IMG/VR virus record: IMGVR_UViG_3300046492_000369
Coordinates: 1-64,000 of that record
Strand: one strand, 5' to 3'
DNA: 64,000 bases
Source of the DNA: a virus
Shown: in pieces, positions 4,339 through 20,242 of the stretch
How the letters are laid out: every line of letters begins with the position of its first letter
How positions within the stretch are numbered: position 1 is the stretch's first letter
Translations under genes and position numbers: made by a program
The notes under the pieces: generated by a model
Seen by the model: only the letters and a program-made list of their open reading frames with translations
What the model was told of the DNA's origin: nothing
Database searches by the model: none

Positions 4339-6546
4339 ATGACTTGTGAAGGTAATGTCTGCGGTACAGGCGGTTGGGGCGGCCCTAAGCCAGGTGATCC
4401 GAACAATGACAGCATTCTACGGGCTACACCAGCATTCGGTGGTATCGACATCAATTTTACTTACCCAACTGTCAATCCCTATGCGCTGGCTTACACAATG
4501 TTGTACAGGGGCGTCTTACCAGACTTTGCCAACGCTATTCTCATTCAGGATGCCTTGGCTGGCAGCTACTATTTCGATCGGGTAGATCCCGGCACCACTT
4601 ATTACTACTGGATTCAGTTCGTATCGATTAACGGCACTATTGGTGATGTTATTGGCCCTGCATCAGCCCAAGCCAGGGATTCGATCGAACAGACCCTGCG
4701 TGACCTGACTGGCAAGATAGATGCAGGTGTGCTGGCGCAAGCCCTGAAGACAGAGATCGCAAGGATCCCTGAAATCGATGACAAGATCTTTCAGGAGATT
4801 GAAGACCGACTCAGCAGTAATCAAGCTTTGTCCAATGCCATTGCACAGGTACAGAACGTGTCGGATGAGACACTGAGCTATGTACAGCAAGAGATCACCC
4901 AACGGCAGGATGCCGATGGTGTGTTGGCTGAATCGATCAATACCTTGTTCGCCCAGATGGCAGGCAATGCTGCAGCCATCAATGAGGAAAAGCTGGTTCG
5001 GGTCAGCAAGGATGACGCCCTGTCGCAGCGGATTGACACCCTGGCTACATCTTGGGGGCCAGACATTGCTGCTGCTATTGCGATCGAACAGACTGCCCGG
5101 ACCAATGCAGATGGAGCGTTGGCTCAGGACATCACGACCTTATTTACCCGGACGAATGACAATGCAGCAGCCGTCATTGCCGAGCAAACTGCCCGTACTA
5201 CGCATGAAGGCTCGGTAGCCACCACAATTGCTGACTTGTACACCAAGCATGGGGAAGCCCTGTCGGCGGTGGATACGGAACGAACATCCCGTACAAGCGC
5301 TGATAGTGCCCTGGCTTCGGACATTACTACCCTGTTTTCCCGGGTAAGTGGTGCTGATGCGGCGATTCAATCCACTAATCAAGCCATTGTAGATGCTGGT
5401 GTGGCAACAACCAGCCAGATCAACACAATGCGGACCACGATCAATGGCGATATCACGAATGCCATAAATGGGGAAGCTGGTGCCCGTAATGCTGCAATTT
5501 CCTCTGCAGTGCAATCGGAAGCCAATACCCGTTCTGCCGCAGACTCAGCCTTGTCCCAGCAGATTACTACGGCCGAATCGTCCATGGGCAGCAATCTAAC
5601 CCAAGTTCAGACGCTATTGCAGACAAATATCGACACAACCAACGGTAAATTGACTTCAATTGGTGCTTTGTACACGGCTAAGGTCAGTGTAAATGGCTTG
5701 ATTGGTGGTTTCGGTGTCTACAACGATGGTAGTGAAGTCGAAGCAGGGTTTGATGTTGATCGTTTCTGGGTAGGCCGAACTAACGACGACAAGATTAAGC
5801 CATTCATCATCGATAGCGGCACTGTCTACATCAATGAAGCAGTGATCCGGCACCTTGAAGTGGAAAAGATCACCAGTGGTAGTGTTAATTCGGAATGGCG
5901 CATCCGTGGTCTGGGTGGACGGATCGTCATGGACACCGGGGCAGTGATGAAGGTAATTGGTACTGGTTTTGGTGCCAACAAGGATCTCATCGAGTGGTTT
6001 GGTCCCAGTATGCCGATTGAAGCCTGTACGAAAGCCAATGCCACGATTTATGAAGCAATTGATGGTAGTGCCTACTATGGTGGCGCACTCCGGGCAGGTA
6101 CCTTGTACAACGCCCAACGTACTACACAGACTGCTGCTAATGCTCAAGTTCCTCTTGGTCCATTCTGGTCTAACGGTAATCCGAGGGTGCTGGTCGTTAG
6201 CTATACCTTCAACTGGGAGATGTTGAATAACAATGCTGGTTCGACTGGGTACCAATACCAAGGAGGGGATACTTACGCCGATATCCAGCTCTGGAAAGGG
6301 AATACCATGGTGTCTTCCAGCAGAATGACGGGAAGCTATACCATTGATAACGATCTGAGTGATCCAGACAGCGCCAGTATCAGCATTGGTGGTTCTTTCA
6401 CCTTCACGGACACAGGCCCAGCCGGTAACTATTCATACAGCGCTGTTATTGTGTCGCGGAGCCTGGCAAACATCACTCATAGCTCTGGAGCCAACACCTC
6501 TTCAAATATCACGCAATCACTGGGCATTGTGAGTACTGAAGCCTGA
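4339..6546 (+). CDS. tail tip / host-specificity protein (coiled-coil repeats plus DUF1983-like region)
   Basis: start ATG 4339 after GAGGAG; FnIII-like YYYWIQFVSING; ~32-aa E..AR..AD.ALA..ITTL repeats; YTAKVSVNGLIGGFG...FDVDRFWVG...PFIIDSGTVYI. Confidence 0.75.
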   Translation: MTCEGNVCGTGGWGGPKPGDPNNDSILRATPAFGGIDINFTYPTVNPYALAYTMLYRGVLPDFANAILIQDALAGSYYFDRVDPGTTYYYWIQFVSINGTIGDVIGPASAQARDSIEQTLRDLTGKIDAGVLAQALKTEIARIPEIDDKIFQEIEDRLSSNQALSNAIAQVQNVSDETLSYVQQEITQRQDADGVLAESINTLFAQMAGNAAAINEEKLVRVSKDDALSQRIDTLATSWGPDIAAAIAIEQTARTNADGALAQDITTLFTRTNDNAAAVIAEQTARTTHEGSVATTIADLYTKHGEALSAVDTERTSRTSADSALASDITTLFSRVSGADAAIQSTNQAIVDAGVATTSQINTMRTTINGDITNAINGEAGARNAAISSAVQSEANTRSAADSALSQQITTAESSMGSNLTQVQTLLQTNIDTTNGKLTSIGALYTAKVSVNGLIGGFGVYNDGSEVEAGFDVDRFWVGRTNDDKIKPFIIDSGTVYINEAVIRHLEVEKITSGSVNSEWRIRGLGGRIVMDTGAVMKVIGTGFGANKDLIEWFGPSMPIEACTKANATIYEAIDGSAYYGGALRAGTLYNAQRTTQTAANAQVPLGPFWSNGNPRVLVVSYTFNWEMLNNNAGSTGYQYQGGDTYADIQLWKGNTMVSSSRMTGSYTIDNDLSDPDSASISIGGSFTFTDTGPAGNYSYSAVIVSRSLANITHSSGANTSSNITQSLGIVSTEA

Positions 6547-10873: not shown

Positions 10874-13867
10874 ATGATCGAATTTCCTCTTAATCCTGCC
10901 GTCGGCCAGCAGTTCAGTGTCGGTACCAAATCCTGGGAATGGACTGGTGTAAGCTGGGATCTGCTGGCTTTCTCCACGGTGGAGTTGCGTCGGGTGGATG
11001 CAGCAGTAACCAGTGCTGAACAAGCAGCTACTGCAGCACAAACAGCAGCCGATGTAGCAGTTACGGCTGCAGATCAACTCGCTAATTTGACAAAAATCTC
11101 GGTAGGTCTGGGTAATGTAGACAACACGGCTGATGCAGACAAGCCAGTAAGTACTGCTGTTGCCACAGCATTGAGCTTGAAGGCTGATAAGTCCCAGATC
11201 TCCAATATCAACAATACCAGTGACGCCAACAAGCCAGTCTCCATTGCCCAACAGGCAGCTCTGGATCTGAAGGCACCTTTGGTATCTCCTGGTTTCAGTG
11301 GTGTACCGACTGTACCGACTGCGGGTGCTGGCACCAATACCCTGCAAGTAGCATCAACTCAATTCGTGACCAGTGCTGTGGCACAAGCCAAGGCTGATAT
11401 CGTCAACAGTTCACCAGCTGCACTGGATACGCTCAATGAATTGGCCACGGCACTGGGTAATGATCCGCAGTTCGCTACGACGACAGCTACTGCAATTGGT
11501 AACCGACTTCGTGTCGATACCGCTGCGCAGGGATTGACCGCAGCACAGCAAGGTAATGCTAAGGTGAACCTGGGGCTTGGGAACGTGGATAACACCTCAG
11601 ACGCCAACAAGCCGGTTAGCTCTGCGCAACAGACCGCGCTGAATGCAAAAGCAAATCTGAGCGGCGCAAAATTCACTGGCACAGTCAACAGCAGCGCAGG
11701 AATTTTCGCAGTCGGTGCGGGTAATGATGTTGCTAACGGCATCGGCCCAGGCGCTGTGTTCTCAACAGGTGCTGACGGCGCGGCTAACGTCTACCGCGGG
11801 TTCTGGTGGCAGTTGGGGGCAGCTGACCAAGCGCGCCTGTTCATTGGTAATCAGACGCAGACCGCATGGCGCAACCCAATCACGGTGGATACAGCGGGCA
11901 CTGTCGGTATCGGTGCTCCTAGTCCCACGTTGGGCGCAGGTTATTCAGGACTGCATATCAACAGCGACAGTACGCCCGGTACTCAGATTCACTTGACAAA
12001 CCCTACCACTGGAACAACTGCGGCTGACGGACTTACCCTATCCAATGATGTATCAAGTGCTTACCTGTGGAACTACGAAAACACTCCGTTAGTATTCGGC
12101 ACGAACTCAGCTGAACGGCTGCGGATTGCTGCTTCAGGTGCTGTCGGTGTCGGTGTAATTCCTAGTGCATGGTCTTCAGCCGCCCTACAGGTGAAAGCTA
12201 CTGGCATTACCGAAACCTCTAGCGGTGGCGAGTTCACCTATAACACCTACCAATCTGCACCGGGAACATGGAAAGCCATTGCGGCAGGTGGTGCAGCACG
12301 TTACGGGCAGGCTGGCGATCATCGCTGGTATGTGGGCAACGCTGCTACTGGTGCTGATATCGCTTGGACTCAGGCGATGACCTTGGGGGCTAACGGCAAT
12401 CTCTTGATCGGCACTGCGGTTGATAACGGCGCTGATAAGCTACAAGTGGAAGGATCGGTGTCTGCTAAGGGAATCGCGCTGGCCCATGCCCCCCTTACCG
12501 GCGTCAGTGTCTCTACTGGTTCCATGACACGGGAAGGGACGGTTGCGCGTTGTTACGTTGGCGACGGCACCGGCTGGTCCTGGGCATTTAGCAAGCGGGC
12601 CGCGTCTGCTACTACTGATCTGGTCACTATCAAGGACAATGGTGACGTCCTGATCGGCTCTACAATCGACAACGGCACGGACAAATTGCAAGTTACAGGC
12701 TCGATCAGGGCAAGTAACGGTAATCTTATCAATACTGATGGGGTCTATGTACAGACATCTACCTCAGCAAATGCATCGGCCCGTAACTTTGCGTTCGGTC
12801 AAATCTCCTCCTTCGGTCGCTTCGAGCTTACTGTAGGTAATGTCAAGGATGCCGACCCTACGACTGCTGGTATTCCGTTGATGAGCTGGACATCTTCCGG
12901 CAACGTCGGTATCGGTAATACAGCGCCTTCTTCCGCACTCAGCATTGGACCAGCAGTAAGTAAAGGAACAGCATTAGCAGAAACGATAACGTTCCCCGGA
13001 TACTCTACCAGTCCCCAATATCGACTCCTGATTAACCATACAGGGTCAGGGATATTGGGTATCGGCAGCGATGGCGCAGGATCAATGATCCTTGGTCGCG
13101 CTATCGACTTTGCCGGCACACCGCAGATGGAATACGCAAGGTTTGATGCCAGCGGCAACCTGTTGGTAGGGGCGACGAGCGGTAATAGTCACATCTTCGT
13201 TAAGCAAGTAGCTGAGGGACAGACCATTCTCGGGGTTCACAACGGGAGCAACTACTCATTCGCCGCATTCGCGGTAGCGAACATGAGTTGGAACGCCGCT
13301 GGATGTGCTGTCGTAACAGGTAAAAACGCCACCACTGACCGCTCGATCAACACCGCAGGCACCATCAACGCATCTGGCGCTGACTACGCCGAGTACATGA
13401 CCAAGGCTGAGGGCTGCGGCGTGCTGACTAAGGGCCAGATCGTCGGTGTCGATGCGGAAGGCAAGTTGACCGACAAGTGGGCAGAGTCGGTGTCCTTCCT
13501 CATCAAGTCCACTGACCCGTCGTATGTCGGTGGTGACGTGTGGGGCAGTGAGGAGGCGCTGGGACTGGCCTACCCTACCGACGAAACCAGTGAAACTTAT
13601 GCTGCTGATTTGGAAGCCTTCAATTCCGCGCTGGAAGCAGCACGTCAGAAGGTTGATCGAATCGCTTACGCAGGCCAGGTACCTGTCAATGTGCAAGGTG
13701 CCATTCCTGGTCAGTACGTTGTGCCTCAAGCTATGGCTGATGGCAGCATTGGAGCCCGTCTGGTAGGAGCTTCAGGGATCTCACTGCCGGAATACATGGC
13801 TGCTGTGGGCATCGTGCAGAACATCCTGCCTGATGGTAGGGCTAATGTCCGTGTGAAAGTCGTTTAA
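10874..13867 (+). CDS. long tail fibre with C-terminal intramolecular chaperone (peptidase G2-like)
   Basis: three GLGNVDNTxDxxKPVS-type repeats, PAALDTLNELATALGNDPQFATT, two G(N/D).LIG...DNG.DKLQV repeats, GADYAEY...AGQVPVNV. Confidence 0.88.
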   Translation: MIEFPLNPAVGQQFSVGTKSWEWTGVSWDLLAFSTVELRRVDAAVTSAEQAATAAQTAADVAVTAADQLANLTKISVGLGNVDNTADADKPVSTAVATALSLKADKSQISNINNTSDANKPVSIAQQAALDLKAPLVSPGFSGVPTVPTAGAGTNTLQVASTQFVTSAVAQAKADIVNSSPAALDTLNELATALGNDPQFATTTATAIGNRLRVDTAAQGLTAAQQGNAKVNLGLGNVDNTSDANKPVSSAQQTALNAKANLSGAKFTGTVNSSAGIFAVGAGNDVANGIGPGAVFSTGADGAANVYRGFWWQLGAADQARLFIGNQTQTAWRNPITVDTAGTVGIGAPSPTLGAGYSGLHINSDSTPGTQIHLTNPTTGTTAADGLTLSNDVSSAYLWNYENTPLVFGTNSAERLRIAASGAVGVGVIPSAWSSAALQVKATGITETSSGGEFTYNTYQSAPGTWKAIAAGGAARYGQAGDHRWYVGNAATGADIAWTQAMTLGANGNLLIGTAVDNGADKLQVEGSVSAKGIALAHAPLTGVSVSTGSMTREGTVARCYVGDGTGWSWAFSKRAASATTDLVTIKDNGDVLIGSTIDNGTDKLQVTGSIRASNGNLINTDGVYVQTSTSANASARNFAFGQISSFGRFELTVGNVKDADPTTAGIPLMSWTSSGNVGIGNTAPSSALSIGPAVSKGTALAETITFPGYSTSPQYRLLINHTGSGILGIGSDGAGSMILGRAIDFAGTPQMEYARFDASGNLLVGATSGNSHIFVKQVAEGQTILGVHNGSNYSFAAFAVANMSWNAAGCAVVTGKNATTDRSINTAGTINASGADYAEYMTKAEGCGVLTKGQIVGVDAEGKLTDKWAESVSFLIKSTDPSYVGGDVWGSEEALGLAYPTDETSETYAADLEAFNSALEAARQKVDRIAYAGQVPVNVQGAIPGQYVVPQAMADGSIGARLVGASGISLPEYMAAVGIVQNILPDGRANVRVKVV

Positions 13868-13892
13868 TCTATCAACAACAAGGATCTGAGCA

Positions 13893-14177
13893 ATGCATAT
13901 TCTTTCCATGGTTTCTTTGTTAGTACTGGCAATCCTGCAGCTTTGTGATGGTCTGCTTACTGCAAGAGTGTTGGCTCGTGGTGGATGGGAATTGAACCCT
14001 GTTATGCACTACCTAATGGATAAATTGGGTATCACTGCAGGGCTGATCCTACCTAAACTGGTTTTAACGGTGCTGCTCTGGCTTTACGTGAGTAATTATC
14101 CATTGGTGTTGGTGCTGCTCGTGATTACCTATCTGATCGTGGTAGTCCACAACTGGCAACAGTTGAGCAAGGATTGA
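13893..14177 (+). CDS. small membrane protein (DUF5658-like)
   Basis: LQLCDGLLT...GGWELNPVM motif, three hydrophobic segments. Confidence 0.7.
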   Translation: MHILSMVSLLVLAILQLCDGLLTARVLARGGWELNPVMHYLMDKLGITAGLILPKLVLTVLLWLYVSNYPLVLVLLVITYLIVVVHNWQQLSKD

Positions 14178-14309
14178 GTCACTGAATCTTGCGTTCTGTC
14201 CAGAAACCAACGATTTGTTTGACTTAATTCATTCTTACAGGCAACAATTCCTATGAACAAGGTAGAATACTCCGACACCATTTTTAACCTAAATTTACAG
14301 AGATTCAAA

Positions 14310-14537
14310 ATGCGAAATGTGAGTGCTCCCGAGTTCACCAGCTATGCCGGATCAGTCACTGCCATCGGCGCGTCCATGACGCTGACCAATATTGGCATCC
14401 TGATCGGTATTGTTACTGCACTGCTGACGTGTGCACTCAACATTTACTTCATGCGACGCAAGGATCAGCGGGAACAACGGGAAAGTGATGCCAGGATGGC
14501 ACTGCTGTCCCAGAAAGAGGATGTGGTTCATGGATAA
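14310..14537 (+). CDS. holin
   Basis: hydrophobic helix then charged tail (YFMRRKDQREQRE), directly before and overlapping the endolysin. Confidence 0.75.
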   Translation: MRNVSAPEFTSYAGSVTAIGASMTLTNIGILIGIVTALLTCALNIYFMRRKDQREQRESDARMALLSQKEDVVHG

Positions 14538-15051
14538 TGACACCAGCAACCGGCTCAGGGTGGCAGTGGCCAGCCTGGCTCTGTCTGCAGCAGGCTTCAT
14601 TGGCATCATCTCCAGCGAGTATTACACCGATAACGCCGTGGTGCCGACATTAAACGATCGGCCCACAGTAGGCTTTGGCTCGACCTACTGGGAAGATGGT
14701 ACACCCGTCAAGATGGGCCAGAAGATCACGCCAGTGCGGGCCTTACTAGTGGCCAAGACGCACATCAGCAAGGAGGAAGTGAGCTTCCGAAAGTCTTTGC
14801 CCGGTGTCGCACTGTCGCAGACCGAGTACGACGTGTACATGGATTGGGTCTACCAGTACGGCACCGGCGCTTGGTCCGGCTCCAGCATGCGCAGTCACCT
14901 CCTAAGAAAAGAATATGCAAGTGCTTGTGGGGCACTGCTGGCATATAAGTTCTCCGGTGGTTATGACTGCAGCATCCCCGGTAACAAGGTGTGTGCGGGC
15001 GTCTGGACACGCCAGAAAGCCCGCTACACCACCTGCATGGGGGCACAATGA
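14530..15051 (+). CDS. endolysin, GH24 lysozyme with probable SAR anchor
   Basis: ATG 14530 after GAGG; Ala/Gly-rich VAVASLALSAAGFIGII, catalytic E (SEYY), PTVGFGST, YQYGTGA, GVWTRQ. Confidence 0.88.
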   Translation: MDNDTSNRLRVAVASLALSAAGFIGIISSEYYTDNAVVPTLNDRPTVGFGSTYWEDGTPVKMGQKITPVRALLVAKTHISKEEVSFRKSLPGVALSQTEYDVYMDWVYQYGTGAWSGSSMRSHLLRKEYASACGALLAYKFSGGYDCSIPGNKVCAGVWTRQKARYTTCMGAQ

Positions 15052-15416
15052 ATATTCAAGGTCTGTTGATTGCGGTATTACTCTGGGTTGCTTCGATAGC
15101 TGGCTCATTCTTCTATGGTCAATCGGTAGGAACCGACCAGGAGAAGGTCAAGCAGACTGAAATCAAGCAAGCTATCGAAGACACCCGTGAAGTGGCACGT
15201 CAAGGAGCTGCAAGTGAAATTGCAAAAATTAAAGTTCGGAACACCACCATTCAAGGCAAGGTCACCACACTGGTCCGTGATAATCCTGTGTACCGCGATT
15301 GTGTCAATGATCCTGCAGGGCTGCAGCTCATTAACGAAGCGCTCACCGGTAAATCCAGTGGGACCGGACGCTACAGTGGTGATGGCTTGCCCACTACTGT
15401 CTCCCCTCTCCGATAG
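15048..15416 (+). CDS. i-spanin (Rz-like)
   Basis: ATGA overlap with endolysin, single N-terminal TM, helical periplasmic part. Confidence 0.75.
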   Translation: MNIQGLLIAVLLWVASIAGSFFYGQSVGTDQEKVKQTEIKQAIEDTREVARQGAASEIAKIKVRNTTIQGKVTTLVRDNPVYRDCVNDPAGLQLINEALTGKSSGTGRYSGDGLPTTVSPLR

Positions 15417-15507
15417 TTCCTTCGGAGGCACCGTGGCCAAGCTAGTGGAGGTAGGTAGCCAATACAACGAATGTCGTACTGCTGCCCTGGCTGGATTAAA
15501 AAAGTGA
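15277..15507 (+). CDS. o-spanin (Rz1-like lipoprotein); start uncertain, frame open from 15187
   Basis: overlaps i-spanin in +1 frame; lipobox LQGC, Pro-rich CPLLSPL, QYNEC. Confidence 0.75.
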   Translation: MIILCTAIVSMILQGCSSLTKRSPVNPVGPDATVVMACPLLSPLSDSSFGGTVAKLVEVGSQYNECRTAALAGLKK

Positions 15508-15727
15508 TTAGCCTCCTGTCCCAGATGTTGATACTGGTTAGTGAAATACCTGCCCAGCCTGAACCGAAAAGAATCACTGCAGCTGAGCCAGTATATCGGC
15601 CTCGCTGCAGCGAATGTGACGACGAAGGACGAGATGCCCGTCTTCCTTGTGAAGGGCATGACTGAATCTGGGAAAGGAGGTGATCTTATCTACACCGATG
15701 CCCCGGATGTTCTCGGGGCATTTGTGT
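15506..15727 (+). ncRNA. candidate structured non-coding RNA
   Basis: 15506-15526 pairs with 15666-15685 (19 bp); inner stems 15531-39/15586-94, 15540-44/15574-78, 15602-13, 15634-39/15654-59; terminator-like hairpin follows. Confidence 0.55.
15698..15727 (+). terminator. hairpin at the convergence of the lysis and rII transcripts
   Basis: ATGCCCCG-N8-CGGGGCAT then TTGTGTT. Confidence 0.6.
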
Positions 15728-15927
15728 TATTGGCGCACCAAACTGGCAGCAGGTACGGGAATGCAGTAAGCGTACAGGAAAGCTCCTCCACTTCTATCGC
15801 GGGATTGCTGTTGTAAGTCTGCTGCTGCAGCCCTACATGCCTGCCCATCATTCATCACTGCCAGTGTAGAAGGGGAAGTGTGACCCCCACTTGACCCAAT
15901 CAGAAGCCAGACAATTGCCTTGATCAT
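15727..15927 (-). CDS. small hypothetical protein, hydrophobic N-terminus, two Cys
   Basis: ATGA overlap with rIIB stop. Confidence 0.65.
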   Translation of the reverse strand: MIKAIVWLLIGSSGGHTSPSTLAVMNDGQACRAAAADLQQQSRDRSGGAFLYAYCIPVPAASLVRQ

Positions 15928-17783
15928 TTGGCTTCTACCAGCTTCAGGATCTGAGCAACCTGCTCTTCAGTCACCCCAAGCACCGTCCAGCTCTTCTTGG
16001 CCTTTTGCTTGATGGTCAGGATAGCCTGAGCTACACCAACCGAAGTAATCCCAATAGCCAGCATCTTCTGGATGCGTTCCTTGGGTCCACCTTCCCCCAG
16101 CTCGACACCATTAACGACACGCTTGGTCGATGCCATGACTGGTGCGTCATCCCGGGCATCATTCAAGACATCAGCACGGGTGTCTTCGCTACCGTCCAGT
16201 TCAACTTCCATGACCTGAGGTGTAGGCTTAACTGGCTTGGCTACTGTCGGTTTCGGGAATGGCTTTGGTGGTTTGGTCTTAGTACCTGGCTTAGTGGTAG
16301 GATCAGGAATGCCGAGGCGATCCCAGCCAACTTTGGCTGTTTTTTTAAAGATCACTAACGCATCCAGATCGTCACGGTGGCCACTAGCCTGCCACTTAGC
16401 ATACATGGCTTGAGCCTGCTCCTTACGGGACAGCTGTACCTTTTCTTCTTGCTGTTCGACCTCGGCCACCACTTCTTTCGGGTCAGTGGGTTGGTCCAGT
16501 GTCTCAGCTTCAGCATTACCGATCGCTTCCGCTTGAACAGGTGCTACCAAAGTAGCTTTCACCTCTAGCTTCATGGTTCCCAGCTTCTTCACCTGCACAC
16601 CGCCACCATGCTGTGCCGTGATACGCACTTCATGGGTCTTGCCGATGTGCTGACCGCTAAGTGCCTTAGCTAGCAGCTGCTTGCCATCTTCCAGCTTGGT
16701 GATGGGCTCATTACGATTTAGTAAGTTGTACTGTTCCTTGGTGAGCTCCGCGATGATGTGATAACCACAGACACGCATCTTGTTGGCGTCGTAGGTCGGC
16801 ACAGCGATCACGTCTTCCGGAGTCAGCTTGGCCAGTACGCACACGTCGCCATTGAAGCCCCTGATGTAGCCACGACGGGCCACATGCAGGCCGTTGGAGC
16901 ACTCGTTGTTGCGGTTGTGGTCCACCAGCTTCTCATCCATGCAGACGTAGGCCCCGACCCACTGTTCTACCTTCTGGGTATGGCAGTCCACGTACGTGTC
17001 CTTGCCATAGGTACGAAGTACCTTGTAGATCAGGATGGTGCCATCATCCGCGATTGGCAGGTCAGCTCGCTCCAAGAACTTGAGCAGGTCTTCCACCGAG
17101 TGACTGCGTTTGTCGATTACTGAAGCCAGCCGCTGTAGGAACGCTTCGACACCCTGAGTCGAACCGAGCTTGGAGGCCCGGGCGAACTGGGTCTTGATCC
17201 GTTCCATACCCGGGATGATGGTATCCCCTACCACGGCGATGATGGTGTCCGGTGCCGCAGCATGGACTTCATCATTGCGGTCATTGGGAGTTTCCCCATT
17301 GGCTTCCACCACATTGCCCTGCTTGCCGACCGTGACTTCATGGAAGTCTGGTGACGATACCGGCACAGCATGCTGCATGATCTCGGCCACGACAGACTGG
17401 GTCTGTTCGACTTTGGATGGCATCTTGGCAGCCATTACTGCTTCAATACTTTCCTTCGTTGTCGGAATGTGGCCGAGCGCCTGTTCCGGGACCACCTCTA
17501 CTGGCTTCGGTGTGAACAGGTTCTTCAGCCTTTCCTTGGCCACCCTGAAGAACTTGACCACGCCCCCGGATTTCTCCTCGAACTGGGCATAGCTGTTGTC
17601 CTCCGGTTGGTCGATGGCCACGTAAGCATGGTCCCTCTCGACCAGCTGGGGCGTGACGGCATCGACGATCCGACGCAGGCGCGGATCGCCTTGGGGAATG
17701 ACGATCGTACTGCCATCGTCCTTGTACAGAGTGAGATTGCGGGTATCGACCACTGCCGCAACGATACGAATGAGATTACTCAT
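15924..17783 (-). CDS. rIIB: rIIB-like protein
   Basis: FLERADLPIADDG.ILIYK, ECSNGLHV, DVIAVP.YDANKMRVC.Y; follows rIIA. Confidence 0.9.
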   Translation of the reverse strand: MSNLIRIVAAVVDTRNLTLYKDDGSTIVIPQGDPRLRRIVDAVTPQLVERDHAYVAIDQPEDNSYAQFEEKSGGVVKFFRVAKERLKNLFTPKPVEVVPEQALGHIPTTKESIEAVMAAKMPSKVEQTQSVVAEIMQHAVPVSSPDFHEVTVGKQGNVVEANGETPNDRNDEVHAAAPDTIIAVVGDTIIPGMERIKTQFARASKLGSTQGVEAFLQRLASVIDKRSHSVEDLLKFLERADLPIADDGTILIYKVLRTYGKDTYVDCHTQKVEQWVGAYVCMDEKLVDHNRNNECSNGLHVARRGYIRGFNGDVCVLAKLTPEDVIAVPTYDANKMRVCGYHIIAELTKEQYNLLNRNEPITKLEDGKQLLAKALSGQHIGKTHEVRITAQHGGGVQVKKLGTMKLEVKATLVAPVQAEAIGNAEAETLDQPTDPKEVVAEVEQQEEKVQLSRKEQAQAMYAKWQASGHRDDLDALVIFKKTAKVGWDRLGIPDPTTKPGTKTKPPKPFPKPTVAKPVKPTPQVMEVELDGSEDTRADVLNDARDDAPVMASTKRVVNGVELGEGGPKERIQKMLAIGITSVGVAQAILTIKQKAKKSWTVLGVTEEQVAQILKLVEAK

Positions 17784-17794
17784 GGGGCTTCCTT

Positions 17795-20242
17795 TTAGTT
17801 TTTAAGTACGAGAGCCAGGACATCAATGGCAGCCTTGGCTAGCTGGGGAGAGGTATCGCTCGAATTCAACAAACGAGCTAAACCAGACTTATCAAGGATA
17901 CTCAACAGTTCACTATCCTTGACCTTTTTAATGAACAGTGCATTCGCTGGATCGAGAGGAATAGCATTCAAATATGTGCGCACACTGGCCATATCAGGCG
18001 GGATGTTGTAGCGATGATGGGAAATCAAGTCCTTCCAGAGGTGCACATACTTCCTGTCTTCCTCGGTCAGATTATTCACCAAGCCAAATTCCTGTCGCAA
18101 GATCTCAGTGTTGTACACCATTTCAATGACTGAAGTGTTATAGAAGCAGTCGGAATAGTACGTCGTCAAAGCCCGGTTCACATCGAATGCCCAGTATTCC
18201 CTGATAGTCGGACTGTTCAGCATGTAATCACAGACCTTTTGCCGAACATAGTCCGTCATCTCGGGAATATTCTTGCCCTTCCACTTCGCATGCATGGATG
18301 AATTGGTGGTAATGCCACCTTTATCCCCGAACAATTCGACGATATAAAAAGACGCCAATTCATCCCAATGATCCAACACCAAGGTCGAAGTGGTCTTATT
18401 GATTTTTACTTCTACCAAGAACTCAGGATTCTCAATACGGGGTGCCGTATCCAGTCGAGACAATGTAGTATTAATATGCATGCGAACATTCTTGGCTGGC
18501 ACGACTGACTTCAGGCACGCCAAGCCTTTCTGTACTGGCTTGCGTGCAGAATAGTCCCGCTTTTCTGGTTCTTCTTCCCAATCCTGTCGTGTAGTCAGGT
18601 CCACCACAGTCATACCACTAGCTTGGAAGAACGTAAGTGCTGCTTCCTGCTCGGCCTTCTTCATGCCAACGTGGTACACCAGGAAGCCCTCGTACTTGCC
18701 GAGCTGCTTGAACACGTCATGACGGAAGATCCGCAACTTGAGATCTCGGCGTGATTTGGTGAGTACGACGATGTTGCGCAGGTAAGGCAGTGTGGCAAAC
18801 AAATGACGTGGAGCCACCATGTTGAAGGCCACCATGGGCGGGGTGCTGGTGTCGTAGGAATTGCTAGGTGCATTGGCGTCACCGGAATCGAACACATACA
18901 GCTTCTTGTGGTCGATGCCCGCCTTGATCAGCTTGACGACCAGCGGGCCCACCACACAACGCTGCAGCCAGTCGTTGGGTTCATGACCACGCTGGAAACC
19001 AGCTTTCACCTTGTCCAGATGCCGCAGGAAGGTCTGCACCGTGCCACGCTGCAGCAAGCCAGCCACCACCATCTTCTCCAACCGGAACTTGATGTCTTGC
19101 TTGCGGAAGTCCAACGACTTCGGATAGTTCGATTCCATGTACCGCTGAGACATGGTCAGCAGATCGCTGATATGGGTCGGATGGGTGGAGTCTCCCTTGA
19201 TCGGCAGGCATTCAGCCGTGGTCAAGAGATCGGCAATACGCTTGTCGGCTACCGCATTTTCCACTGCAGCTTGGGCGAACTCGCTGCAGGCTTCCTTGAA
19301 GGTCGTGTTGAGCGTATCGACGAAGCCACCCAGCAGCATCTTCAGCGTCTTGATGGTGTGCTCTTGCATCGACAGGGATTCTCGGCTTGGGGTCACCGAG
19401 ATGCTGTGCGGGGGAGCTTGGAAGATGATGTTGTAGTTCCGGCTGTGGCGACCCAAGGCTTCGAGATGTGCCTTGATAATCTTGTATTCGTGGCCGATCT
19501 CCGAAGCCGTATCTACCGGATAGATCACGTTCCCATACCGCACCATAATGTCGGTTTGGTTCTCGATGAATTCGCCGGGTGCGATCAGGTAGTTGGCTTT
19601 GGTCGTATCGAAGCCAAGGGTTTCCACTTGCTTCCCGTTGAAGAGCACATTCATGTCGCCGTTCTTGGCGATACGCTGCACCAGCCGCATGAAGCGATTG
19701 CGATTCATGTTGTTGAGGATGCGGATCGTCACCTGCAGGCCGGTATCCGTGGTTGGGAACGAAGCGATCGGAATGATTCCTGGCTTGCCCATGGCCTGTG
19801 CCGACGACTTGGAAAGGTTGTAAATTGTTTTCACCCCATCGTGGCAGGATATCACCTCGAAATGGTCAGTGTAGGCAAAGGGTGCCTTGCAACCCAGACC
19901 GAAGCCACCAGTCTGCTGGCCATCGTTCTTTTTGGTCGAGTTGCCGTAGGTGCCGTAGATTAGCCCCATGTCATCCTTGTGGATGCCCCGGCCAAAGTCC
20001 TTGATGATGAACTTATCGTCGGTGATGGTGACTTCCACTGGCTTGTCGGTATAACCCGCTTCGATATGGGCATCCCATGCATTGCACAGCACTTCACGCA
20101 CCACAGCCAGAATCTGATCCTTGTACAACGTGGACGACAGGATGTTGAAGAACTCGGCACTGGACGAGATACCGAATTCAATGGGCTGGCTGCCACCAAT
20201 GATAGCGTGCGTGATATGGTCTTTTTGATGTGCTACTTGCAT
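17795..20242 (-). CDS. rIIA: rIIA-like protein (N-terminal GHKL ATPase)
   Basis: LSSTLY...VREVLCNAWDA, DFGRGI, STKK...GGFGLGCKAPFAY. Confidence 0.92.
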   Translation of the reverse strand: MQVAHQKDHITHAIIGGSQPIEFGISSSAEFFNILSSTLYKDQILAVVREVLCNAWDAHIEAGYTDKPVEVTITDDKFIIKDFGRGIHKDDMGLIYGTYGNSTKKNDGQQTGGFGLGCKAPFAYTDHFEVISCHDGVKTIYNLSKSSAQAMGKPGIIPIASFPTTDTGLQVTIRILNNMNRNRFMRLVQRIAKNGDMNVLFNGKQVETLGFDTTKANYLIAPGEFIENQTDIMVRYGNVIYPVDTASEIGHEYKIIKAHLEALGRHSRNYNIIFQAPPHSISVTPSRESLSMQEHTIKTLKMLLGGFVDTLNTTFKEACSEFAQAAVENAVADKRIADLLTTAECLPIKGDSTHPTHISDLLTMSQRYMESNYPKSLDFRKQDIKFRLEKMVVAGLLQRGTVQTFLRHLDKVKAGFQRGHEPNDWLQRCVVGPLVVKLIKAGIDHKKLYVFDSGDANAPSNSYDTSTPPMVAFNMVAPRHLFATLPYLRNIVVLTKSRRDLKLRIFRHDVFKQLGKYEGFLVYHVGMKKAEQEAALTFFQASGMTVVDLTTRQDWEEEPEKRDYSARKPVQKGLACLKSVVPAKNVRMHINTTLSRLDTAPRIENPEFLVEVKINKTTSTLVLDHWDELASFYIVELFGDKGGITTNSSMHAKWKGKNIPEMTDYVRQKVCDYMLNSPTIREYWAFDVNRALTTYYSDCFYNTSVIEMVYNTEILRQEFGLVNNLTEEDRKYVHLWKDLISHHRYNIPPDMASVRTYLNAIPLDPANALFIKKVKDSELLSILDKSGLARLLNSSDTSPQLAKAAIDVLALVLKN

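Follow-up and report, generated by a model that had tools for sequence, protein, structure and literature searches.

The window analysed here comprises the first 64 kb (64,000 nucleotides) of a 77,041-bp IMG/VR virus record with terminal repeats (IMGVR_UViG_3300046492_000369) and is, judged by its gene content, part of an uncultured N4-like phage (Schitoviridae). At positions 15672-15685 of its plus strand it carries a 14-nt tract, GAAAGGAGGTGATC, which is complementary to the 3' tail of 16S ribosomal RNA (rRNA; the tail is an assumed one). Shine-Dalgarno pairing is the textbook start signal of translation, and the question raised by this locus is what such a tract does at the very end of a message, behind the lysis genes and opposite a convergent rIIB-like gene. 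An initial annotation had placed the tract in a structured RNA (15506-15727), either a late non-coding RNA or a switch in the 3' untranslated region (UTR), where a long stem would hide it. Our comparison with related phages indicates that the tract is a genuine, conserved and uncatalogued 3'-UTR element which follows the final stop codon in the lysis operon and precedes the terminator. Its position, the lack of a start codon, its conservation, its single copy, the terminator behind it and its masking are all far more certain than the benefit that the phage may draw from it.

The tract and its terminator in nine related lineages

The sequence and position of the tract and the 17 nt that separate GGAGG from the next ATG, as first annotated, all proved exact when they were checked. 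When both strands of the whole genome are considered, the next longest complement of the 16S tail measures 9 nt, five fewer than the tract, which bears out the earlier claim that the tract is far longer than any ribosome-binding site noticed elsewhere in the window. The longest such complement in 200 shuffled genomes was 12 nt, and a 14-mer is expected by chance about 0.002 times per genome. There is one tract per genome, and the other terminator-like sites in the genome are preceded by a tail complement of at most 6 nt. The candidate ribosome-binding sites of the phage include AGAAAGGA, which stands a few bases before an ATG at genome positions 29914 (minus strand), 31255 (minus strand) and 46981 (plus strand), all of them candidate gene starts. 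Such a site pairs with 16S rRNA at the extreme ...UCCUUUCU end and suggests a tail longer than the CCUCCUUA type of enterobacteria and Pseudomonas; from candidate ribosome-binding sites of this kind it follows that the host tail probably ends in ...CCUUUCU.

No ATG, GTG or TTG is found at a working distance from the tract, as GGAGG ends at 15680 and the next ATG begins at 15698. The triplet at start-codon distance (5-10 nt) is AUC, or GUC in the relative L172, and the open reading frames (ORFs) behind the tract vary in frame and length among the relatives. The annotated absence of a start at normal spacing is thus upheld, and by these comparisons the tract opens no gene; it would fit an orphan Shine-Dalgarno sequence that is not used for initiation, as in stabilisers of the STAB-SD type. 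A mini-ORF with a non-standard start, either the AUC located 7-8 nt after GGAGG or a GUG inside the tract, which would run into the terminator, appears very improbable. AUC does occur at ideal spacing in nearly all copies and in the unrelated phage L099 it shares its frame with a 598-aa ORF, but L172 has GUC and the clade's ORFs vary in length between 7 and more than 40 codons. Since their frames shift through 1-nt insertions or deletions at two places, the module is not coding, and the apparent likeness of the peptides behind the tract (IY..AP..GAF; AP..GxF for the mini-ORF) is dictated by the terminator stem.

The module to which the tract belongs was found in nine related lineages, collected by pattern scans and with a profile of the small protein described below: the window, L002, L003 (= L168), L163 (= L169), L152, L155, L170, L171 and L172. 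Its consensus consists of GAAAGG, zero or one variable nucleotide, AGGTGATCC, 1-3 nt, (A/G)TCTACA, usually NCGAAG, a GC hairpin and a T run. In L003, the stop codon of the small gene is followed by GAAAGGAAGGTGATCC, then by CATCTACA and then by a terminator with compensatory stem changes. GGTGATC and TCTACA are invariant in the clade, whereas the rIIB proteins are just 43-68% identical, and the tract is conserved in all nine lineages while the adjacent non-coding bases differ. Chance, or a functionless and decaying remnant of a former gene start, is scarcely credible as an explanation of a 14-mer that is expected so rarely yet is conserved in this manner.

In eight clade members out of nine, the stop codon that ends the lysis operon is followed by the tract after 0-13 nt; the module is always opposite a convergent gene. 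L002, L152 and L155, of which the latter two are also N4-like, carry the module and no small gene in the DNA fetched, and in L002 the module sits after the o-spanin gene. In L152, a candidate o-spanin gene (93 aa, lipobox LVGC; motif-oriented coordinates 4676-4957) ends at a TGA inside GGTGATC, so that its four final codons are supplied by the tract.

The sole variable site in the tract is one inserted nucleotide (A, C, U or none) located exactly at the junction between GAAAGG and AGGUGAUCC. Joined together, these two parts are the exact complement of the 16S tail, in which the junction insert would be a bulge, and an A-to-G change in the tract of L155 would give a G.U pair with the tail. A CsrA-type GGA motif was rejected, as it is lost in L170 (GGC) and L172 (GGU). 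In local folds the pyrimidine stretch AUCU(AC) folds back weakly on AGGUG/GGUGAU (-2 to -6 kcal/mol), and this predicted fold-back may explain why AUCU(AC) accompanies the tract. AUCUA also complements the universally conserved 790 loop of 16S rRNA (UAGAU); as chance alone would yield a 5-nt match in a 1.5-kb rRNA, this complementarity is kept merely as an idea. We found no conserved cis partner of the tract in the relatives. A further IMG/VR scan produced no additional clade members, its other matches being coding or true gene starts, BLAST of the clade module against cultured phages gave no real match, and five cultured Schitoviridae contained only coding matches with one mismatch.

An intrinsic terminator follows the tract in all nine relatives. 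In the window it occupies 15697-15722, the only terminator-like site in 13800-16200, and the inverted-repeat finder extends its stem to 15692-15705/15714-15727. The terminator covaries: its foot is ACAC:GUGU, ACAG:CUGU or ACAA:UUGU, five pairs are changed on both sides, and the G.U pairs are invariant. Part of TCTACA doubles as the terminator foot, and the U tails in the clade are mostly UUUUGUGUUUU. Judged by this covariation, the hairpin at 15697-15722 and its tail, which had been annotated as following the long stem, are a real Rho-independent terminator at the convergence with the rIIB block. A segment within the o-spanin gene (15458-15473) is 81% complementary over 16 nt to 15719-15734, which comprises the 3' arm and the T tail of the terminator, and could form an alternative pairing with it. 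A pseudoknot between AUCU and the terminator loop was rejected, as GAU in the loop is limited to the window and L168/L169.

The distance from GATC to the GC stem is 14-15 nt in eight of the nine relatives, and a spacing this nearly fixed would suit a translation-sensing terminator. A ribosome caught at the tract would melt the foot and the 5' arm, where closely coupled translation would lead to read-through antisense to rIIB and uncoupled transcripts would terminate. UAC/ACA has two possible partners, GUG in the tract and the terminator's UGU foot, and a convergent gene always lies opposite the module. We nevertheless consider this explanation unlikely, because the strong covariation maintains an efficient terminator, because the convergent gene of the relatives ends 3-10 nt from the T run so that read-through would collide with it, and because no conserved anti-terminator pairing was found.

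The last lysis gene and the long-range helix

The features around the tract are as follows, in window coordinates.

14253-14537, plus strand: holin, by family assignment in the lysis cassette
Ending at 15051, plus strand: lysozyme-type endolysin, by family assignment
15048-15416, plus strand: i-spanin, by family assignment
15187-15507, plus strand: o-spanin ORF (start not fixed), with PHROG matches to Rz-like spanins and homologues in L002, L003 and L163
15504-15665, plus strand: gene of the small protein, 53 aa, by homologues and coding signature
15506-15526, plus strand: 5' arm of the 19-bp helix, which contains CCUCC and covers codons 1-8 of the small gene
15666-15685, plus strand: 3' arm of the 19-bp helix, directly 3' of the small-gene stop codon, which contains the complement of the 16S tail
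15672-15685, plus strand: orphan 'super-Shine-Dalgarno' tract, 14 nt and start-less, the core of the conserved 3'-UTR module
15686-15691, plus strand: pyrimidine spacer TTATCT, of which the (A/G)UCU part is conserved, by alignment and local folds
15692-15733, plus strand: extended intrinsic terminator with foot ACAC:GUGU, A tract, GC stem at 15697-15722 and T-rich tail
15728-15923: spacer holding unconserved ORFs only, by comparison with the relatives
15924-17783, minus strand: rIIB-like gene, convergent (PHROG 2886, E 2e-168), the end of the early/middle block
17795-20242, minus strand: 815-aa gene adjoining rIIB, found likewise beside rIIB in L002, L003 and L163

On the plus strand, a tail-fibre gene is followed by the lysis cassette, which begins with a DUF5658 protein, and the early/middle block on the minus strand extends to about 43.9 kb. 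With the late/lysis unit on the plus strand and the early/middle unit on the minus strand, the element therefore lies where the two units converge, at the 3' end of an N4-like phage's late (lysis) operon. The closest cultured phages by rIIB, at approximately 36-42% identity, are Pseudomonas Zuri, Burkholderia vB_BpP_HN01-05 and Achromobacter/Pseudomonas Inbricusvirus. The 815-aa gene is probably rIIA. The 196-bp spacer has no counterpart in the relatives. On the plus strand it holds the tail of the frame 15541-15816; on the minus strand it is spanned by a 66-aa ORF (15727-15927), whose ATG and the rIIB stop codon overlap (AAATGA) and whose end lies at the terminator foot, and no ORF resembling the latter was seen at any fetched relative locus.

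Most of the interior of the annotated RNA is occupied by a gene. Two alternative frames had been named for it, of which 15504-15665 is conserved and 15541-15816 is not; the latter (91 aa) was rejected as a gene, as it has no family match and no relative, its likeness to the relatives being confined to the tract and the terminator. Homologues and the coding signature indicate that 15504-15665 is a real gene encoding a conserved 53-aa cysteine-rich protein, the last gene of the late/lysis operon. L003, which was found through rIIB (53% identity), has at the equivalent place, just before its convergent rIIB gene, a 50-aa ORF that shares 58% identity with the translated 15504-15662 (E 5e-20). When 1.8 billion proteins were searched with a profile of the small protein, ten matches at E <= 1e-3 were returned, mostly of 49-78 aa. 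Homologues with coordinates are L168:2501-2650, L169:2501-2656, L170:338-484, L171:1607-1774 and L172:432-587. Ten residues are invariant in the 11-sequence alignment (M1, Y31, R32, C35, C38, D44, R46, C49, G51 and H52), and the family combines an N-terminal helix (M-[MI]-S-x-L-A-Q-L-L) with a C-terminal YRxxCxxC..GRDARxPCxGH motif.

The coding signature is clear among the six homologues with DNA, where differences by codon position amount to 73/75/211 over 22 C-terminal codons; the small genes of the window and L168 differ by 14 synonymous and two non-synonymous codons. With eleven homologues conserving this reading frame, an outcome that the initial annotation had itself set against its proposal, the reading as a late structured non-coding RNA cannot be retained. 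What survives of the proposed 3'-UTR location concerns the tract, which does lie in the 3' UTR before a real terminator, and not the flagged interior, which is coding. The small protein had no match in Pfam, PHROG or PDB, a word-index protein search and an initial metagenome scan with the 53-aa protein gave none, and a Protein Atlas search gave no usable match. AlphaFold gave a modest model of it (pLDDT 74), whose small size and uncertainty precluded a fold search. The CxxC..CxxH motif is possibly a zinc knuckle, and the alignment points to a new protein family that terminates the lysis cassette in these N4-like phages.

In ordinary translational coupling, an occluded start is combined with an ATGA or GTGA overlap. 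An overlap of one of these two kinds joins the small gene to its upstream gene in all six homologues with DNA, the upstream gene being the o-spanin in the window, L169 and L172, in L171 a 212-aa protein with which the lysis cassette ends, and in L003/L168 a 444-aa gene. In the window, the o-spanin stop codon (TGA, 15505-15507) overlaps the GTG start of the small gene and lies within the 5' arm of the long helix, as had been annotated. By its GTGA overlap, the small gene is taken to be translationally coupled to the o-spanin. As in the ordinary case, this start and the upstream stop codon overlap, and the start lies within a helix which ribosomes from upstream would open; unlike there, the masking comes from a conserved 3'-UTR element at a distance of 140 nt and not from a local hairpin. 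In addition, A AAA AAG (15498-15504), formed by the final two Lys codons of the o-spanin, is a classical -1 slippery heptamer leading into the frame of the small gene, and the 19-bp helix begins merely 2 nt after it. A dnaX-type -1 frameshift from the o-spanin into the small gene was rejected, as L169/L172 read GGT/AGT AAA AAA TGA, and L002 carries the heptamer yet has no small gene. Since the signal is not conserved in the relatives, the heptamer is probably incidental.

The pairing of the tract with 15506-15526 is present in the minimum free energy (MFE) structure of the plus strand (15506-15727; -91.6 kcal/mol, z = -6.27, none of 200 shuffles as good), which comprises the 19-bp closing helix (5 + 6 + 8 bp), several inner hairpins and the terminator. 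The inverted-repeat finder returned the arms 15512-15526 and 15666-15680 (15 nt, 93% complementary), and the duplex of the two helix arms reaches -29.9 kcal/mol, compared with -10.9 +/- 3.2 kcal/mol for 500 shuffled 5' arms, none of which was as good. The long pairing and the unusual folding energy claimed for the window are therefore sound. The multibranch fold is present in the MFE structure of the window; its closing helix and inner stems are neither conserved nor covarying, and in the relatives only the terminator covaries. Rfam 15 contained no relevant match to 14000-17000 at E <= 1, with a chance aceE-II match elsewhere.

The minus strand, with an MFE of -92.9 kcal/mol and z = -7.2, is at least as stable as the plus strand, and folding energy therefore does not select the strand. 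It had been argued that G.U pairs favour the plus strand, and this holds for the terminator, where these invariant pairs and the T run point to the plus strand, but not for the fold as a whole. The stable minus strand would also agree with a role at the level of DNA or of the minus strand, either as a protein site (GATC followed by TTATCTACA) or in an rIIB read-through RNA carrying GGAUCACCU(N)CCUUUC, a copy of the 16S tail. There is no good minus-strand terminator between rIIB and the tract, and TTATCTACA is present at 15686-15694, one base off the DnaA box consensus. However, TTATC is restricted to the window and L002, two of the nine relatives, the others having CCATC, CTATC or CTCGTC, and for this reason a DnaA box is unlikely. 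With the inserted nucleotide the 16S-tail copy is no longer intact, and the T run, the invariant G.U pairs and wobble-compatible A-to-G changes in L172 and L155 fit a plus-strand RNA, so we regard a role of this kind as decidedly improbable.

The partner of the tract in the 19-bp helix is not conserved in L168, L169 and L170, and L168 cannot form the pairing. In the MFE structures of L171 and L172 the start of the small gene likewise pairs with the tract, and in L169 and L170 the CU-rich start of the small gene pairs with an internal AAGAAGGA instead. The predicted partner of the tract changes again when more upstream context is folded. For the six ORF-bearing relatives, RNAalifold kept only short helices, namely GGUG/CAY+U (His-stop), AUC/GAU (RDAR) and a UUUCG/CGAAA hairpin, in which there are one-sided wobble-compatible changes only and no double changes. 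By this comparison the 19-bp helix is lineage-specific; in the window, the first eight codons of the small gene have become complementary to the tract, which hides both.

Masking in cis might be the entire function, where the tract would pair with the CU-rich start or end of the last gene and force coupled translation, the likeness to a Shine-Dalgarno sequence being a by-product. The helix of the window, the pairing of gene start and tract in L171 and L172, and the GGUG/CAY+U and AUC/GAU pairs that all six ORF-bearing relatives can form agree with this. We find it improbable, since the tract is equally conserved in L002, L152 and L155 without a small gene, and since its partners vary among relatives and with context, as the pairing in L169 and L170 illustrates. 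The tract thus tends to be masked, by partners that differ among the relatives, and is equally conserved without them, a pattern which is best explained by an invariant partner in trans.

Comparable tracts and known systems

A scan of IMG/VR with the pattern AAGG-N1-2-GGTGATC-N2-3-ATCTACA returned 41 stretches, in which about nine families are coding (G-D-x-I-Y, or Hsp20 GDPYLH) and eight are non-coding (the clade, L023/L148, L074, L099, the L129 group, L146 and L159). The enrichment of ATCTACA was gauged against one permuted control 7-mer, for which two stretches were found, both of them coding. A stricter pattern with GGAGG fixed gave a single stretch in 596 Gb of prokaryote genomes. The non-coding copies serve no ATG, GTG or TTG, and as a rule each is joined directly to a stop codon, with a hairpin or terminator behind it; the tract is stop-fused or within 2 nt of the stop in L074, L129, L146, L159 and the Vibrio phages P23, F89 and 1.265.O. 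In L099 (846-925), the AUC after the tract lies 21 codons before the first ATG of the 598-aa ORF, and this ATG has no Shine-Dalgarno sequence of its own, which would make the ORF a possible AUC-initiated gene.

Cultured carriers were found by BLAST with a 33-nt copy. In the Vibrio phages P23 (L201:703-734), F89 g1 (L202:701-735) and 1.265.O (L204:903-935), UAGG(A/G)GGUGAUC(C/A)..AUCUACC is located after the last small gene of a lysozyme-holin cassette. The Vibrio K172 group, with more than 200 near-identical records, has the variant AAGG-CU-GGUGAUCC-U-AUCUACC in an endolysin leader (L203:887-925), and Vibrio phage jenny 12G5 was matched as well. The four copies given with coordinates are unannotated, with a hairpin after each. 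Start-less tracts complementary to the 16S tail and present once per genome, behind a stop codon, ahead of AUCU(AC) and a stable hairpin or terminator and often near lysis genes, could represent a new class of cis-element that traps the post-termination small subunit and sets the stability or read-through of a late message, and with it perhaps the timing of lysis. The N4-like module would be one member of this class, a generalisation that these sequences suggest and that we hold to be doubtful.

Two known systems resemble parts of this arrangement. The STAB-SD of the Bacillus thuringiensis cry3A (cryIIIA) mRNA is an orphan Shine-Dalgarno sequence that stabilises the mRNA (Agaisse and Lereclus 1996, listed in the review PMC3997798). 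Both are long Shine-Dalgarno-like sequences that start no gene, and STAB-SD is thought to bind 30S subunits and protect the mRNA. STAB-SD acts in a 5' UTR, in a Gram-positive host, where it blocks 5'-to-3' decay, whereas our tract is located in the 3' UTR between stop codon and terminator; the phage carries spanins, which implies a Gram-negative host. The tract of the clade is thus not a 5'-UTR element, while the related tract of K172 does occupy a leader. In Escherichia coli rpsO mRNA, ribosomes shield an RNase E site located 10 nt after the stop codon (Braun et al. 1998, as summarised in the same review). The resemblance lies in a short vulnerable gap that separates the last stop codon from the hairpin of the terminator, where nearby ribosomes protect the message. 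The difference is that in rpsO the terminating ribosomes alone provide the protection, and there is no 16S-complementary tract.

What the tract may do

The explanation that we favour, although only tentatively, is that the tract catches the 30S subunit after termination and shields or tunes the message at its 3' end. What constrains the tract would then be its pairing with the invariant tail of 16S rRNA. A 30S subunit that stays on the message past the last stop codon would be caught by the tract, with AUC or GUC and hence no start codon in its P site, and would cover the single-stranded gap of roughly 15 nt together with the terminator foot. As such a gap is the classical entry point of RNase E in the rpsO mRNA, a subunit covering it would make the end of the lysis message more stable or tune it. 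In the window phage, the 19-bp helix would keep the tract and the start of the small gene closed unless ribosomes coming from the o-spanin open it; as the helix would open only during translation of the small gene by these ribosomes, exposure of the tract would follow translation.

Several observations weigh against the capture of 30S subunits. The tract is about 90% paired by prediction in the window and in L171, so that a bound 30S subunit would not be the default state. A subunit held at the tract would overlap the terminator foot and could weaken termination instead of protecting the message. L171 is without the GAAA part, and the tract of L002 lies 58 nt from the stop codon. Covariation cannot reveal pairing with an invariant partner, and the conservation could therefore equally reflect a protein or another RNA. 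To these are added the assumed identity of the 16S tail for this host and the equally good folding of the minus strand.

The decoy or switch idea of the initial annotation would now concern the tract alone. In a trans-acting version, the 3' end of the message or a fragment of it would serve as a 30S decoy, or else pair with CU-rich RNAs in the manner of a sponge or small RNA, and late translation would be reprogrammed. The 3'-UTR-derived small RNAs of enterobacteria and Vibrio, such as CpxQ, DapZ and OppZ, have a conserved tract 5' of the terminator of their own mRNA, and their seeds, usually CU- or GU-rich, pair with the ribosome-binding sites of targets. The tract has this same layout, being of single-stranded type, directly 5' of the parental terminator and more conserved than the neighbouring non-coding bases, and its perfect 13-15-nt match to the 16S tail occurs once per genome and recurs in unrelated phages. 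It differs from these small RNAs in that it itself resembles a ribosome-binding site. There is no promoter-like site inside the small gene, the interrupted U tail is poor for Hfq, no second complementary target exists in the phage genome, and a single site per late message must compete with every ribosome-binding site. Action in trans is for these reasons also unlikely.

The locus changes its annotation in that the proposed RNA is mostly the gene of a new family of small cysteine-rich proteins ending the lysis cassette. If the capture of post-termination 30S subunits by the tract is correct, these phages would use the Shine-Dalgarno contact for another purpose, namely to hold a ribosome at the end of a message. 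That such tracts recur next to lysis genes in phages of unrelated lineages, with cultured hosts for some of them, makes it testable how ribosomes behave on 3' UTRs after termination and whether this affects the life of the mRNA or the timing of lysis.

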